Source: a phage. Taken from it: a DNA stretch of 40,621 bases. Position numbers and translations under genes: made by a program. The notes under the pieces were generated by a model. That model did not search any database. It was given only the letters and a program-made list of their open reading frames with translations, and had not been told where the DNA came from. Position 1 is the stretch's first letter; every line of letters starts with the position of its first letter. The stretch lies in the sequence record PX596819.2; one strand, written 5' to 3'. Shown one piece after another: positions 22,343 to 28,968 of the stretch.

Positions 22343-22365
22343 AGTCCCTATAGTGATAGTTTAGT
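22343..22365 (-). promoter_or_regulatory. Phage RNAP promoter (phi6.5-like)
   Basis: Consensus match (minus strand ACTAAACTATCACTATAGGGACTTTAGG). Confidence 0.65.
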
Positions 22366-22414
22366 GTTTCACCTATGGATGACTGTTGGATTGATAGGAT
22401 ATGACTATCGGTTA

Positions 22415-22510
22415 GACTCAGTGTTTAGGGCGGTTGTTCGACTCGAACCACTTGTACATGCAGTAAAGGGCTAGAAGTCCGGCCCAGTAAATTACACGGA
22501 TGGTGTCCAC
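22415..22510 (-). CDS. Possible small hydrophobic ORF at the gene 6.3 position (about 31 aa, GTG start)
   Basis: AGGAGGT 6 nt upstream of GTG; overlaps the gene 6 stop; too short for the ORF track. Weak. Confidence 0.25.
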
Positions 22511-23361
22511 AGGATGACCTCCTTGGACTTAGGATCATAGTCAGATGCTCGACAAATACGAGCGACCTGAGCTTGGACCAGAAGTTCCTCCTCGGTCATT
22601 CCAGCTTTAGCAGCAAGAGTCACCATGCAGTCCCATAGCGTCATGTCTTCACGCTTTGGATACTTCTTCCACTCAGTCTTAATCTGGCCTTTGTTCCTAC
22701 CAGTCTTAAGCTCACGGCTCTCCTGCACGAAGTAGTATGGCTCGTCAAGGAATGCACGAGTGGTATCCTCACCCATCCCCGGAATCCCACCGTATCCATC
22801 TGTAGTGTCACCCTTGATGGTCTGCTCCATGTGCCAGTAGTCTGCCTCAGCAGTCGTATGGCTTAGAATTTCACCAGTGGTTAACCAGAAGAACTCACAG
22901 TTCGGGATAGTCTTAAAGTCCTTATCGCAGGACACCAGCACCGCATGGTCACAGCCCACAATCTGAGGTCGTGTCCCGATGATACCCATACAGTCATCAC
23001 CCTCAAGCGTAGGACGCAGGAAGCTGTTGAACCGTGGGTCAGCCATCACTTCTGCTACGAACTTCTTGTACCCTACAGGCTTGCGAGAACCTTTACGGTT
23101 GGCCTTATAGGTAGGAAGAACGTCCTTGCGCCAGTTAGCGTCATCAGTGAAGCACATCACAATCTTAGCGTCTTTCCATGCCTTACGCTTCTTAACGATT
23201 TCAGCGATGGTGTTCTCAAGGATACGACGAGCCTTGGCATGGTCGCAGATAATGGTCCAGATGTCATCACCCCAGTCTGTCTCGTCCTCGGCAGCAGCCA
23301 TAGATGAAAACACTAAGTAGTCACCATCCAGAACAAGAGCTATCTTCTTATTCGAAGTCAT
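22492..23361 (-). CDS. gp6: 5'-3' exonuclease (gp6)
   Basis: Track ORF is 300 aa (to 23394); motifs LVLDGDYLVF, CDHAKAR, PVGYKKF, DKDFKTIPNC, TEWKK resemble T7 gp6. Start placed at the internal ATG that overlaps the upstream stop (ATGA); may extend to 23394. Confidence 0.88.
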   Translation of the reverse strand: MTSNKKIALVLDGDYLVFSSMAAAEDETDWGDDIWTIICDHAKARRILENTIAEIVKKRKAWKDAKIVMCFTDDANWRKDVLPTYKANRKGSRKPVGYKKFVAEVMADPRFNSFLRPTLEGDDCMGIIGTRPQIVGCDHAVLVSCDKDFKTIPNCEFFWLTTGEILSHTTAEADYWHMEQTIKGDTTDGYGGIPGMGEDTTRAFLDEPYYFVQESRELKTGRNKGQIKTEWKKYPKREDMTLWDCMVTLAAKAGMTEEELLVQAQVARICRASDYDPKSKEVILWTPSV

Positions 23362-23486
23362 TCTTTCACCTCCTTGTTGCATTTGAGACACCACCAGTAT
23401 GAGCTACCAGCATATCCCTCCAGCATAGGATGTTGTCCACACTTTTTACACTTTAACCTAGATGCAAATAAACCTTTCAGGCTCAT
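23358..23486 (-). CDS. Small Cys4 zinc-ribbon protein at the gene 5.9 position
   Basis: CKKC-N17-CLKC; the 42-aa form starts at an ATG overlapping the gp5.7 stop and ends overlapping the gp6 start (ATGA at both ends). The track gives a longer 60-aa form to 23540. Confidence 0.45.
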   Translation of the reverse strand: MSLKGLFASRLKCKKCGQHPMLEGYAGSSYWWCLKCNKEVKE

Positions 23487-23692
23487 AGACAGCCTCCGTG
23501 TTGATTCAGGAACTTGGTGCCAGCAGCGGTAATCTCCCACGCACCATTGTTACGCCCATCCATAGACAGGCAGCTTAGATGTCCACGACTCGCAGCCTCA
23601 GCCACAAGTGCAGCGTTGTTGCGCACATAGTTGGACTGGAAGGTCTTCGGGCAGGACTTAAGGGCCGCTAGGACCCGTAAGTATTCACTCAT
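23483..23692 (-). CDS. gp5.7: gp5.7-like protein
   Basis: 69 aa starting MSEYLRVLAALK..FQSNYVRNNAALVAEAASRGH, as I recall for T7 gp5.7; synteny. Confidence 0.7.
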   Translation of the reverse strand: MSEYLRVLAALKSCPKTFQSNYVRNNAALVAEAASRGHLSCLSMDGRNNGAWEITAAGTKFLNQHGGCL

Positions 23693-23973
23693 TGCTTGAC
23701 CTCGAATCGCAGGTTGGACACGCCGAACTGGTGATCATCAAAGGCGTACATCAGCTCCTTCTTGACGTACTTCTTGACGGCAATCTCAATGGCAGACTCA
23801 GGGCCTGACTCGATTGCTGCTTTGACCATGGCAAACTGAAGTCCATCCAGCTTCTCACCCTCAGCGTAGGCTTTAGTAACCTCAGCCAATTGGCGACACA
23901 TGGTCTCTTCTTCTTTTGAGTTGACAACCATCTTCAGGTCGAAACTTACACGAATACGTTTAGTAATAGCCAT
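23689..23973 (-). CDS. gp5.5: gp5.5-like protein
   Basis: Track ORF starts at GTG (23991); I place the start at ATG 23973 (MAITKRIRVSFD), which overlaps the DNA polymerase stop as TAATG. Confidence 0.6.
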   Translation of the reverse strand: MAITKRIRVSFDLKMVVNSKEEETMCRQLAEVTKAYAEGEKLDGLQFAMVKAAIESGPESAIEIAVKKYVKKELMYAFDDHQFGVSNLRFEVKQ

Positions 23974-23975
23974 TA

Positions 23976-24128
23976 GTGACACTCCTTCCACGTTGGTCCA
24001 ATCTTACCTTCGGTATCAAGGACACATTTAAAGTTATAGAACTCACCCACCTTACGCATAGCAAGTTGAGCAATTTCGACTGTACGTTCTGCTATTTCTT
24101 GAGTACGACAAGCAATCTGTAACTCATC
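23976..24128 (-). CDS. gp5: DNA polymerase, 3' exon (C-terminal 51 aa: DELQIACRTQEIAERTVEIAQLAMRKVGEFYNFKCVLDTEGKIGPTWKECH)
   Basis: No start codon or RBS; translation continues the polymerase exactly where the upstream ORF stops, and resembles the T7 DNAP C-terminus (DEIQVGCRTEE...LDTEGKMGPNWAICH). Confidence 0.8.
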
Positions 24129-24728
24129 CTTTCTGTATTCTCCCATTACTGGAAGTGTCGGACTATATCATCAGTCTTTGAGGTGACTGTCTGGCGCTTC
24201 GGGTTACGTGGGAATCTCACCCACGGCCCTACTCCTTTCGGATAGTCTCTACGCCTTCCACTCTCTCTAATCCACCCACAGGCGGCTGAGAACGACACAT
24301 TGAATACTTCGGCTAACTTCGTTCCAGTACACCCAGTCTCTACCCAGTAGTCTCGTGCTTCTAGCTTCCTAGCAGCGTATCGCTCTTGGTTTGTCTTGAC
24401 TAAGTGTGAGTCCCGGTCTAATACTTGTAGATGTTCGACGTTGCAGCAAGCTCTATTATGACACTTGTGGTCTACTTCGAAACCTTCAGGTATTGGACCA
24501 TTAGCTTTAGTCCATAAAGTTCTATGATACATCTCTAGGACACCGTTAGTCCTCTTTCGGAAGTATCCATCCTGATTCAATTTATGTGACGTAGGGATTA
24601 TGCAGCCAGTCTCAGTGGCCTCAAGAATTAACTTCTTGCCTCTCATACATCCTCCCTATGGCTTGGCTCGGTATTGTCCCATTAGGAGTTCACCGAGTTC
24701 ACCAGATTTAATGTGCACCATGATGTTA
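24129..24728 (-). mobile_element. Intervening sequence (about 600 nt) in the DNA polymerase gene: putative group I intron carrying an HNH homing endonuclease ORF
   Basis: Polymerase reading frame is interrupted after ..AYMAWVH by an in-frame TAA and resumes at DELQ.. 600 nt downstream; the upstream exon ends in T and the insert ends in G (AAAG|GAT), as at group I intron boundaries; the insert encodes an HNH protein. Confidence 0.7.
24146..24646 (-). CDS. HNH homing endonuclease encoded inside the polymerase intervening sequence
   Basis: 166 aa with HNH motif EVDHKCHNRACCNVEHLQV and the upstream GYFRKR..YHRTLW..GPIP pattern typical of phage HNH endonucleases. Confidence 0.8.
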   Translation of the reverse strand: MRGKKLILEATETGCIIPTSHKLNQDGYFRKRTNGVLEMYHRTLWTKANGPIPEGFEVDHKCHNRACCNVEHLQVLDRDSHLVKTNQERYAARKLEARDYWVETGCTGTKLAEVFNVSFSAACGWIRESGRRRDYPKGVGPWVRFPRNPKRQTVTSKTDDIVRHFQ

Positions 24729-26744
24729 ATGCACCCATGCCATGTACGCGAAGTCTCCTTCCCAGCCGTGTACATACCCGGCCTCTTCGAGCATACGTTC
24801 AGTCTCAACAATCCAGTGCTTACAGACTACCGCACCATCACCTTGAAGTAAGGCGTTCAGTGCTGAGTGTGGAGACCGGATGTGAATGCGGCGACCGTCA
24901 AGTCCACGCAGCCAACGGCGTTTCCACTTAACGATGTTCTCTCCGTCAACCCACTTAGAGTCTGAGATTAACGTACTACTCACAGCTTCCCTGAGGTCCT
25001 TGATGGCTGGTGTACCCTCAATGAATTTCTTCATGAGAGCTGAACCTTCCTTCTTACCACCTCCTACTATCAGTCCAATCTTAGCGGCCCCTGCGCCATA
25101 CAGGAACGCATAGATGAACGTCTTAGCGTTGTTACGGAAAGCATCATGGTCGTGGTTAGACTTATCGCGTGGGACGTTAGGTGCTAACCCAGCGTTGACT
25201 GCGTTGGCCCAGTGGATGTCACCTTCGACCACAGTCTTCGCATAGTCACCACCATCAAACGGAGCCGCTCTGTTCCCCAGACAACGAAGCTCAAGACCTG
25301 AGGCATCCACACCTACTTGAATCCAAGGGTCTGGATTACCGTCCTTCTTGTTCCATGCTGCACCGAAAGCACCACGGCAAGTCTCACCATATGGAGCACC
25401 GTTAGCAGGGACCTGAGCCATGTTTGGTGAACTATGAGTAGCACGTCCGGTTACTGCCCCGCATGGGTTGATTGAACCATGCATACGTCCGTCTGGACCT
25501 ACAAGTTTCAACCATGCGTTCTTACCTTCAGCCGCCTGACCAATGCGCTTCTGGACTACCAGATACTCACGGACCAGCTCTACGCAAGCCTGAGCCTCTG
25601 CGTCTGGTAACTTAACGTGTTCTAACGTCTCGTCATCGACTACAGGTTTCCCGGTGTCAGTGAAGTCCACAGGCTCCCAACCACGCTCCATCAGAACTTT
25701 CGCTAAGTGGTCTCCGCTTCCCGGATTAAACTCAACGTAAGTGATAGGTGTGAACGGTGCTCCCTCCATCGTGTCTCGTGAGTCGAACTCACAAGGTTCC
25801 AGACCTAAGCGTTGAGCTTTGTTCTTCGGCTTCTTGAATACTGACCCGACCTTAGGATACACGACTCGCGGATACTTCGGAAGGTCCTTGCCTGTCCGTG
25901 GGTGCTTGAAGAACTCCTTGCCACCCTTCGGTGCATACCAGCTACCGAAAGTCGAACGCAGCTTGTCCAGCAGCTCTGCACGTTTGACGGTGAGTTCACG
26001 ATATAAGCCTTCGACCATCTCGGTGTTCATCGGGTAGCCGTTACGTTCCATCTTCGCACAGGTCCACGCAGCATCATGTTCCAGACGCAACGCATAAATC
26101 TGGTCGAAGGCGAACTGTTCAGACTGGAAGTAATACTTGTCAGTCAGGAACTTCTTGAACAACGCCAGTGTGACCACAACGTCTTGAACGTTATAGTCCA
26201 GCATCTCCTGAGACGGTAACAACCATTCGTCCCCAGCCTTATATTCGATACCTTCAGCCTTGCACTTGGCAACGTAATCGTGTTTGTATTCACCTTTCAT
26301 CTCACCAAGACGATAGCCCCAAGCCTCAAGAGACTGACGTCCCATCATCTTAGGTGGCAGACGACCAGCTTTCACCGCGCCCATGTCTGAGAACTTAATG
26401 TTTGGATACATCAAGCGCCCCAGCACCAAGGTATCAATCATCTTGTGTTTCGGGAAGTTAAAACGTTTCCCAAAGTACAGACGTTTCAGCTTGTCAATAG
26501 CAGGGACGTCATAGTTTATACCATTATGGAAGACAAGCATACCATCAGGTGATGCGGCAATCTCTTCCACTTTATGCACATACTCTTTGAAGCCACCGAC
26601 GATACCGACCATCGGAGCTACCCCATACTTAATGGTCTCATTCGACTCGGCGTTAATCAGGACCCCGCAGTGGAACTGGGAGACTGTATCAAGGAGACCG
26701 TTTGTCTCGATGTCAGAACACCAGATACTCTTAAGGTCAAACAT
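24729..26744 (-). CDS. gp5: DNA polymerase (family A, T7 gp5-like), 5' exon
   Basis: Strong resemblance to T7 DNAP throughout (DIETNGLL, FHCGV, MDYNVQDVVVT, KNKAQR, GRATHSSPNMAQVP, DASGLELRC, FAYMAWVH). Start placed at the internal ATG with GGAGGA 6 nt upstream (MFDLKSIW); the track ORF begins earlier at 26780. Confidence 0.93.
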
Positions 26745-26765
26745 GGTTAATCCTCCGTTTAGTCT

Positions 26766-26806
26766 AATCATAAAGGCCACTCGATGTGAATGACCTTGAG
26801 TCTAGA
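26766..26806 (-). other. Conserved hairpin motif (copy 2 of 3), candidate RNase III site (R4.7-like position)
   Basis: Same motif as at 3144 and 34998; lies between genes 4 and 5. Confidence 0.4.
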
Positions 26807-28734: not shown

Positions 28735-28757
28735 CATCCCTAAAGTGATAGTTTAGG
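28735..28757 (-). promoter_or_regulatory. Phage RNAP promoter variant (phi4-like) with CACTTTAGGG in place of CACTATAGGG
   Basis: Minus strand CCTAAACTATCACTTTAGGGATGGGAC upstream of gene 4; A-to-T change at -2. Confidence 0.5.
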
Positions 28758-28968
28758 CTTTGAAGAACTTAGACAACTGGTCAGCTTTGGTGTCAGCTTG
28801 ACGCGCCTTCATTCCAGCTTCCAGTGAAGCGATGGTCAGCTTGTCAGCCAGAGCAGCAGCATCAGCCGCACCATCAGCAGTCTTCTTTTCTACCTTTCGT
28901 TCCAGTACCGCAGCACGACGATAACCACGCACCACCAGACGACCAAGAAATTCTATGAGTTTAATCAT
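28753..28968 (-). CDS. Hypothetical small protein (gene 3.7/3.8 position)
   Basis: 71 aa ORF between lysozyme and primase-helicase; Ala/Lys-rich. Confidence 0.45.
   Translation of the reverse strand: MIKLIEFLGRLVVRGYRRAAVLERKVEKKTADGAADAAALADKLTIASLEAGMKARQADTKADQLSKFFKA

Follow-up and report, generated by a model that had tools for sequence, protein, structure and literature searches.

The phage DNA analyzed here (sequence record PX596819.2; 40,621 nt, the whole of which is called the window) encodes, between gp5.7 and the gene 6 5′-3′ exonuclease, a 42-codon open reading frame (ORF) that is, judging from codon conservation among its homologs, a genuine and conserved gene. In its product, a short helix with an MSLxGL motif at the N terminus precedes a predicted Cys4 zinc ribbon (CxKC-N16-CxKC). 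The zinc-ribbon gene is found at no fewer than six different gene junctions in the Studiervirinae and Molineuxvirinae, and at most of them its first and last codons double as translational signals shared with the neighboring genes.

The 42-codon ORF and its conservation

An initial annotation of the window, made from the DNA letters alone, had proposed that the interval between gp5.7 and the exonuclease contains an ORF with overlapping stop and start codons on both sides, encoding a basic Cys4 mini-protein of 42 to 60 aa with a CKKC-N17-CLKC motif. The ORF is present on the minus strand, with its ATG at 23486 and its TGA at 23358-23360, and each of the two overlaps is a 4-nt ATGA. The features of the ORF are as follows.

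23358..23486, minus strand: zinc-ribbon ORF, 42 codons plus stop, encoding MSLKGLFASRLKCKKCGQHPMLEGYAGSSYWWCLKCNKEVKE (translation; homologs under purifying selection)
23483..23486, minus strand: ATGA overlap of the gp5.7 stop and the ORF start (read from sequence)
23358..23361, minus strand: ATGA overlap of the ORF stop and the gene 6 start (read from sequence)
23493..23497, minus strand: GGAGG Shine-Dalgarno (SD) sequence of the ORF, 6 nt upstream of the ATG, within the last gp5.7 codons (..HGGCL and stop) (read from sequence)
23439..23450, minus strand: zinc knuckle 1, C13-K-K-C16 (C13, K15, and C16 invariant in 11 homologs)
23379..23390, minus strand: zinc knuckle 2, C33-L-K-C36, after the invariant Y30-W31-W32 (columns invariant in 11 homologs)
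23367..23375, minus strand: AAGGAGGTG, the ORF codons K38-E39-V40, doubling as the SD of the gene 6 exonuclease (read from sequence)

The encoded protein is basic, as had been proposed, with an isoelectric point (pI) of 9.3 and a net charge of about +4.5 (homologs have pI values of 8.7 to 9.1), and it has both of the knuckles and hence all four cysteines; the spacer between the knuckles, however, is 16 residues long (residues 17-32) rather than 17. Of the two proposed lengths only the 42-aa form stands. The 60-aa form starting at a GTG was rejected, as its N-terminal extension is conserved in no homolog and would overlap gp5.7 by 57 nt, and the 42-aa form is real because all homologs begin with MSL, even behind unrelated upstream genes. 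A GGAGG/GGAG-N4-7-ATG arrangement is common to all homologs.

A stop-free stretch of 42 codons is found in about 13% of random stretches and is weak evidence by itself. A codon alignment was therefore made of the 11 distinct nucleotide versions of the homologs, in which synonymous sites are essentially saturated, the proportion of synonymous differences (pS) being 0.6-1.0 in most pairs, while the proportion of nonsynonymous differences (pN) is 0.01-0.28; the ratio of nonsynonymous to synonymous rates (omega) is 0.02-0.26 wherever the synonymous rate (dS) is estimable. Twenty of the 42 columns are invariant (M1 S2 L3 G5 L6 C13 K15 C16 P20 L22 G24 G27 Y30 W31 W32 C33 K35 C36 E39 V40), and the four cysteines C13, C16, C33, and C36 are invariant in an extended alignment of 15 sequences as well as in the 11. 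The region folds no better than its shuffles (z = 0.12) and the ORF region has no match in Rfam, results that rule out an RNA element. Taken with the saturated synonymous sites and low pN, they place the conservation at the level of the protein. That the ORF lacks any protein function, being a chance frame, a spacer providing the downstream ribosome-binding site (RBS) and coupling, or an RNA element, is extremely improbable. Such a reading could point to the last conserved codons, which are the SD of the next gene, and to the absence of the family from curated libraries, but purifying selection acts on the amino acids along the whole ORF, the four cysteines and the YWW are invariant in copies with different neighbors, the fold is confidently predicted, and there is no RNA structure signal.

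An AlphaFold model of the protein has a mean predicted local distance difference test (pLDDT) score of 73.6, with a helix at residues 4-9 and strands at 21-25, 28-33, and 38-40. The predicted order of knuckle, beta-hairpin, knuckle, and third strand is that of a zinc ribbon, and the motif of the hairpin, P..L.G[YF].G..YWW, is invariant. Searches of curated families (Pfam-A, PHROGs v4, and NCBIfam 20) with the window protein and the 11 homologs returned only subthreshold matches to generic zinc ribbons: the best PHROG match had an E value of 0.004, the best NCBIfam match 0.013, and all Pfam matches were below their cutoffs. One relative bears a precomputed "faint" match to DUF8118. A sequence profile search of the PDB gave nothing below an E value of 0.2.

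Clear homologs were detected by tblastn in 39 of 50,697 phage records, with E values of 2e-7 to 5e-21; the search listed 45 matches, the other six of which are chance matches (E of 1 or more). Protein searches (a collection of 5.8 billion proteins, and a profile search of 1.84 billion representatives) recovered about nine tiny clusters of 41-46 aa and a few weak, longer or multidomain relatives. Three viral loci were found in IMG/VR, for which a scan with a degenerate DNA pattern gave mostly chance matches. No relatives were found among bacteria and archaea sampled at one genome per species (185,579 species), and none in plasmids. The carriers are exclusively lytic Autographiviridae of Enterobacterales, with hosts in Escherichia, Klebsiella, Enterobacter, Citrobacter, Cronobacter, Shigella, and Dickeya, and the family is a small and rare accessory one. 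Its members are 60-100% identical, belong to the same size class, and are translationally coupled. Where annotated, they are all "hypothetical" or uncharacterized: PHB19 (QHI00755.1/UniProt A0A6B9RPP3), K11 (CAK8273850.1), PGX1 (WGL32426.1), F5M1D (UNA05465.1), and vB_EclP_26 (XBW52431.1). The ORF is unannotated in TM1, whose copy is 100% identical to that of the window, and in Dev2, SH5, Ninurta, and Kp7. No account of the zinc-ribbon mini-protein turned up in the literature under its motif, under zinc combined with gp5.9, or among screens of accessory genes.

Junctions, coupling signals, and movement of the gene

The junctions at which the gene is found, and the phages or contigs representing each, are listed below.

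Junction 1, gp5.7 / ORF / gene 6: the window, TM1, K11-like przondoviruses, and metagenomic contigs L018 and L019
Junction 2, gp5.9 / ORF / gene 6: PHB19 and PGX1
Junction 3, gp5.7 / ORF / gene for a 120-123-aa protein / gene 6: Ninurta, Citrof5, and NJ2
Junction 4, gene 13 / ORF / gene 14: Dev2, SH5, vB_EclP_26, and ESh23
Junction 5, MazG-like gene / ORF / 64-aa gene / DNA ligase: Molineuxvirinae F5M1D and Kp7, and contig L017 (which ends before any ligase gene)
Junction 6, MazG-like gene / the same 64-aa gene / ORF / DNA ligase: contigs L025-L027

Insertion at one of these sites can be read from pairs of sequences. The gene 13/14 junction of Dev2 is the window's own 13/14 junction with an insert of about 121 nt, bounded by GGAGGacgtATG and GGAGGtgaaagATG: the empty site in the window reads ..AAGGAGGACGTATG/TGTGAACCC, and the filled site in Dev2 reads ..AAGGAGGACGTATG/AGCC...CGGGAGGTGAAAGATG/TGTGAACCC. 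At the 5.7/6 junction, gene 5.7 of phage ST1749 is followed directly by gene 6 with no insert, its gp5.7 gene and gene 6 being 96.6% and 92.7% identical to those of the window and its gp5.7 protein 100% identical. CLB_P1 is as close to the window as ST1749 but has a different protein in the slot, acidic and 78 aa long, and phiYIO1-1 has a 151-aa protein there. The Ninurta copy of the ORF is 88.9% identical in nucleotides to that of the window, far above the flanking gp5.7 gene (68.9%) and gene 6 (65.3%), which points to a fairly recent transfer between genera.

The start of the ORF overlaps the upstream stop (ATGA or GTGA) at most junctions; an exception is contig L025, where the ORF has its own AGGAG after a 33-nt spacer and there is no ATGA overlap. 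In every copy examined, the RBS of the downstream gene lies inside the ORF codons K/R38-E39-V40, which read (A/C)(A/G)G-GAG-GT(G/T). All 11 versions have GAG as codon 39 and either GTG or GTT as codon 40, whichever gene follows, while other synonymous sites are saturated. With SDs at both ends and an RBS in the last codons, the moving unit appears to extend from one SD-ATG to the next SD-ATG and to bring the downstream coupling signal with it, and because the first codons overlap the upstream stop and the last codons are the downstream RBS, the gene can be inserted between coupled genes without disturbing their translation. We envisage the 126-bp gene as a self-contained mini-cassette that would have been inserted cleanly at six or more junctions, probably by recombination at short SD-ATG homologies.

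Three further observations concern individual junctions. The SP6-like contigs L009, L017, and L025 contain the mini-gene and the 64-aa gene (MKFIVK...VRVIPVGGL) in both orders; the MazG-like gene beside them corresponds to dGTP_diPhyd_N. In Ninurta (contig L007, 1626-1988), the 120-aa protein encoded downstream of the ORF starts MSHYDCKKCGAYPTCDC; it opens with codons like those of the mini-gene (ATGAGCC), has a CKKCG knuckle similar to the mini-gene's first one, and may be the remnant of a partial duplication or fusion. The homolog in the Shigella phage ESh23 (contig L006; UNVERIFIED record ON528733.1) is at the extreme end of a permuted record, under a minus-strand misc_feature labeled "nonfunctional terminase"; since its flanks are the gene 13/gene 14 junction as in Dev2 and SH5, the annotation of the record looks unreliable there.

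The gp5.9 slot and candidate roles of the mini-protein

T7 gp5.9 is an inhibitor of RecBCD and MukBEF. It is a parallel coiled-coil DNA mimic of pI 4.0 that blocks the DNA-binding site of RecBCD (PMC9836394). The initial annotation had equated the slot occupied by the ORF with the position of T7 gp5.9, and this is borne out by PHB19 and PGX1, which have gp5.9 there, annotated "gene 5.9" and "inhibitor of recBCD nuclease," respectively. The window has no detectable gp5.9: tblastn with the gp5.9 of PGX1 and PHB19 and the gp5.8 of CLB_P1 gave a best E value of about 1 and nothing in the slot. It had also been suggested that the ORF encodes a different small effector in place of gp5.9. A distinct mini-protein in a variable slot is indeed what is found, but the implied role as a stand-in for gp5.9 does not hold. 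PHB19 and PGX1 encode gp5.9 and the zinc-ribbon gene in tandem (order 5.7, 5.9, ORF, 6), so the mini-protein is not a gp5.9 substitute; the gene also occupies other junctions; and charge and fold are the opposite of those of gp5.9. The mini-protein shares with the gp5.9 family the position between 5.7 and 6 but not homology, acidity (pI of about 4), or the coiled-coil dimer fold, and it is neither a member of that family nor an evident functional replacement.

The other occupants of the slot have relationships of their own. The acidic 78-aa gp5.8 of CLB_P1 (contig L001, 2215-2451) and the gp5.9 of PGX1 and PHB19 (L004, 1331-1504 and L010, 1322-1504) have a GVDNW(S/C)G(F/Y) motif in common, which suggests that the slot is used alternately; on the strength of this motif, CLB_P1 gp5.8 may be a diverged gp5.9 homolog. 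The N-terminal FDELMSHLNGEEN segment of CLB_P1 gp5.8 recurs at the C terminus of the slot proteins of Citrof5 and phiYIO1-1 (123-151 aa), a pattern suggestive of acidic modules shuffled into a mosaic at the 5.7/6 slot.

Our tentative proposal is that the mini-protein is a zinc-stabilized module, as predicted from its sequence, that binds nucleic acid or a DNA-processing enzyme. The proposal draws on its DNA-metabolism neighbors, the contexts of two longer relatives, the CxKC lysines, and the Y-W-W. The gene directly downstream is the gene 6 5′-3′ exonuclease in most carriers, and DNA ligase is directly downstream of the mini-gene in L025 and one gene further in F5M1D and Kp7. Each knuckle has its invariant lysine at the third position (CxKC), and the Y-W-W in the hairpin is likewise invariant. 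The closest longer relative (P0012; 123 aa, with an N-terminal ribbon; hhalign 97%, E 2.5e-11) is encoded with a PDDEXK exonuclease and a Rad52-like annealase on one side and a DnaB-type helicase and PolB on the other. A metagenomic protein of 474 aa (P0011; contig L023, 5001-6425; hhalign 94%) has three tandem ribbons followed by an RNase T/DnaQ-type exonuclease domain, an architecture suggesting that the ribbon signature also exists outside phages as a nuclease-attached module. The signature of its ribbons is CK[KT]CG..PGGS[FY]WWCSHC, and the gene adjoins an IS3-type transposase. If so constituted, the module would act in phage DNA replication, recombination, or end processing through a contact surface made up of the invariant lysine of each knuckle and the exposed aromatic hairpin, and in the window phage it would be expressed with the middle (DNA-metabolism) genes. 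An action on host nucleases or DNA, as the initial annotation had suggested, is conceivable given the usual location of the gene among those of DNA metabolism. Several points weigh against the proposal: phages with the gene at the 13/14 junction would be expected to express it late, the structural matches are of a generic kind, and all of the conserved residues could be purely structural.

The main alternative is that the protein acts neither on DNA nor on phage replication enzymes but binds and inhibits a host protein, such as an anti-phage component or another conserved protein of Enterobacterales, and is a counterdefense or host-takeover effector. We consider this possible, though doubtful. 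The gene is rare, patchy, and horizontally mobile (those 39 records), near-identical relatives lack it, and one transfer between genera is fairly recent. Its neighbors 5.5 and 5.7 are known host-takeover genes, and its slot is elsewhere filled by anti-RecBCD gp5.9 or other acidic proteins; the placement of the gene in both middle and late regions indicates a function evidently independent of position; and it is confined to lytic Autographiviridae of Enterobacterales, with none in bacterial genomes or plasmids. Also in its favor is the general enrichment of anti-defense genes in accessory regions, as argued in bioRxiv 10.1101/2023.04.06.535777. On the other hand, the protein has no similarity to any described anti-defense protein or family, its sequence is fairly conserved (60-100% identity, low omega) rather than fast-evolving, and its distant relatives are found in replication and recombination modules or fused to an exonuclease.

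Two more specific roles fare worse. A functional replacement of gp5.9 by a nonhomologous protein that inhibits RecBCD or some other host exonuclease, perhaps by capping DNA ends, is very unlikely: the window has the T7-type slot without a gp5.9 homolog, its closest relative CLB_P1 has a gp5.9-like acidic protein in that slot instead, and DNA ends are a conceivable ligand for a basic zinc ribbon, but against this stand not only the tandem arrangement in PHB19 and PGX1, the charge and fold opposite to those of the DNA mimic, and the location of the gene at the 13/14 junction or beside ligase in other phages, but also the many close relatives that have neither gene. It is highly improbable that the protein is a restriction-alleviation zinc ribbon like Lar/RalR or a regulator of the Mu Com or P2 Ogr type. 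Two family members have weak matches to Pfam Lar_restr_allev (E 0.019-0.035), and a distant relative (P0009; hhalign 91% to the zinc-ribbon family) reaches the Lar gathering score with repeated ribbons. The best family member, however, scores 15.6 bits (E 0.019) against a PF14354 gathering threshold of 28.6, and the window protein does not match PF14354 at E of 1 or less; hhalign against E. coli RalR (Rac prophage) gives a probability of 4.2% with only the ribbon aligned; and the C-terminal helix of Lar (..EALERWNKR) is absent, the window protein ending six residues past its last cysteine. Neither the Com nor the Ogr family of Pfam is matched by any of the 11 members at E of 10 or less, a result in which HMMER filters may hide very weak matches.

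The surrounding locus and known zinc-ribbon proteins

The genes of the window are all on the minus strand, and the local region is 91-93% identical to Kayfunavirus (K1F-like Studiervirinae) genomes over 86-93% of a 1.8-kb query. The genes around the ORF, and the promoter-like repeats of family D1/D2, are as follows.

24726..26780, minus strand: DNA polymerase (upstream in the local gene order)
24146..24646, minus strand: HNH gene, 166 aa, inside the interrupted DNA polymerase gene
23973..24146, minus strand: C-terminal piece of the polymerase, 57 aa, after the HNH gene
23689..23991, minus strand: gp5.5 (phrog_1452, E 2.5e-25)
23483..23692, minus strand: gp5.7, 69 aa, upstream neighbor of the zinc-ribbon ORF (phrog_1334, E 7e-39)
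22492..23361, minus strand: gene 6 5′-3′ exonuclease, 289 aa from the ATG at 23361, downstream neighbor (phrog_107, E 5e-80; PF02739, E 5e-9)
28736..28759, minus strand: nearest upstream promoter-like repeat, CTAAACTATCACTTTAGGGAT on the minus strand (repeat family D1/D2)
22344-22367, minus strand: next promoter-like repeat downstream of the zinc-ribbon ORF (repeat family D1/D2)
758, 6045, 13822, 18507, 19506, 22344, 28736, 31908, 32986, 35035, 38101 (plus-strand coordinates), minus strand: promoter-like repeat copies (repeat search)

The D1/D2 family comprises 10-11 copies of CCTATAGTGATAGTT(T/A)AG, which read CT(A/T)AACTATCACTATAGG on the coding strand. These repeats resemble promoters of the T7 group and are thus likely promoters of the phage RNA polymerase, delimiting transcription units, and the two that flank the zinc-ribbon ORF suggest that it is transcribed with genes 4-6, the DNA-metabolism class. 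The ATGA overlap marks the ORF as putatively coupled in translation to the gene 6 exonuclease.

The DNA polymerase gene is interrupted by a putative intron, which lies about 650 nt upstream of the zinc-ribbon gene. A full-length match to the group I intron family RF00028 (24139..24738, minus strand; 35.5 bits, E 6e-7, below the gathering score of 50 bits) spans the HNH endonuclease ORF, and the 57-aa C-terminal piece of the polymerase comes next. The equivalent in CLB_P1 is annotated as a two-piece joined polymerase coding sequence enclosing a homing endonuclease. As a speculation, co-conversion during intron homing could help nearby accessory genes to spread.

Mini-proteins are easily overlooked, and the zinc-ribbon gene is an example: a conserved gene of 42 residues is unannotated in many T7-group genomes and missing from Pfam, PHROGs, and NCBIfam, although the T7 group is among the best-annotated viruses. 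The most interesting aspect of the gene is evolutionary, and by itself the finding is a modest one. The gene is a clean example of a gene-sized cassette that has its own coupling signals and lands precisely between genes. As the gene competes for the gp5.9 slot and often directly precedes a gene for an exonuclease or ligase, it makes a well-defined candidate for a part in phage-host interactions or phage DNA metabolism. We think it unlikely that the protein is a new small counterdefense or DNA-end-handling factor of the zinc-ribbon type, spreading in the Autographiviridae as a plug-and-play SD-to-SD cassette whose coding sequence itself bears the coupling signals for insertion between any two coupled genes; were it one, it would represent both an uncharacterized effector family and a general mechanism for the shuffling of tiny accessory genes in compact lytic phage genomes.

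Like T7 gp5.9, the mini-protein is a small phage protein, is dispensable or accessory, and is encoded in the class II region, after 5.7 and ahead of the gene 6 exonuclease. The two have no sequence similarity, and the coiled coil of gp5.9, with its pI of 4.0, contrasts with a protein of pI 9.3 predicted to consist of a six-residue helix and a three-stranded ribbon. The Lar/RalR proteins (PF14354) are likewise small Cys4 ribbons of phages and prophages, some with a CPxCG first knuckle; identity with them was rejected (hhalign 4%), as was identity with the zinc-binding protein YdaE of Rac (hhalign 1.5%). The zinc-binding domain of the gp4 primase-helicase is a Cys4 ribbon of similar spacing encoded by the same phage, and its four cysteines align with those of the mini-protein, but its spacer is 15 residues rather than 16 and no motif is common to the two; a T7-type primase zinc-binding domain was rejected on comparison with the window's own gp4 (hhalign 5.6%). 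Also among the closest known systems are the generic zinc-ribbon modules, namely the TFIIB/Brf1 ribbon, the RPB9/TFS C-ribbon, the N-terminal ribbon of NrdR, the NudC ribbon, YfgJ, and eIF2-beta/eIF5. The mini-protein is an uncharacterized protein of a familiar kind, the small zinc-ribbon accessory proteins of phages, and identical or similar sequences are already public, mostly unannotated.

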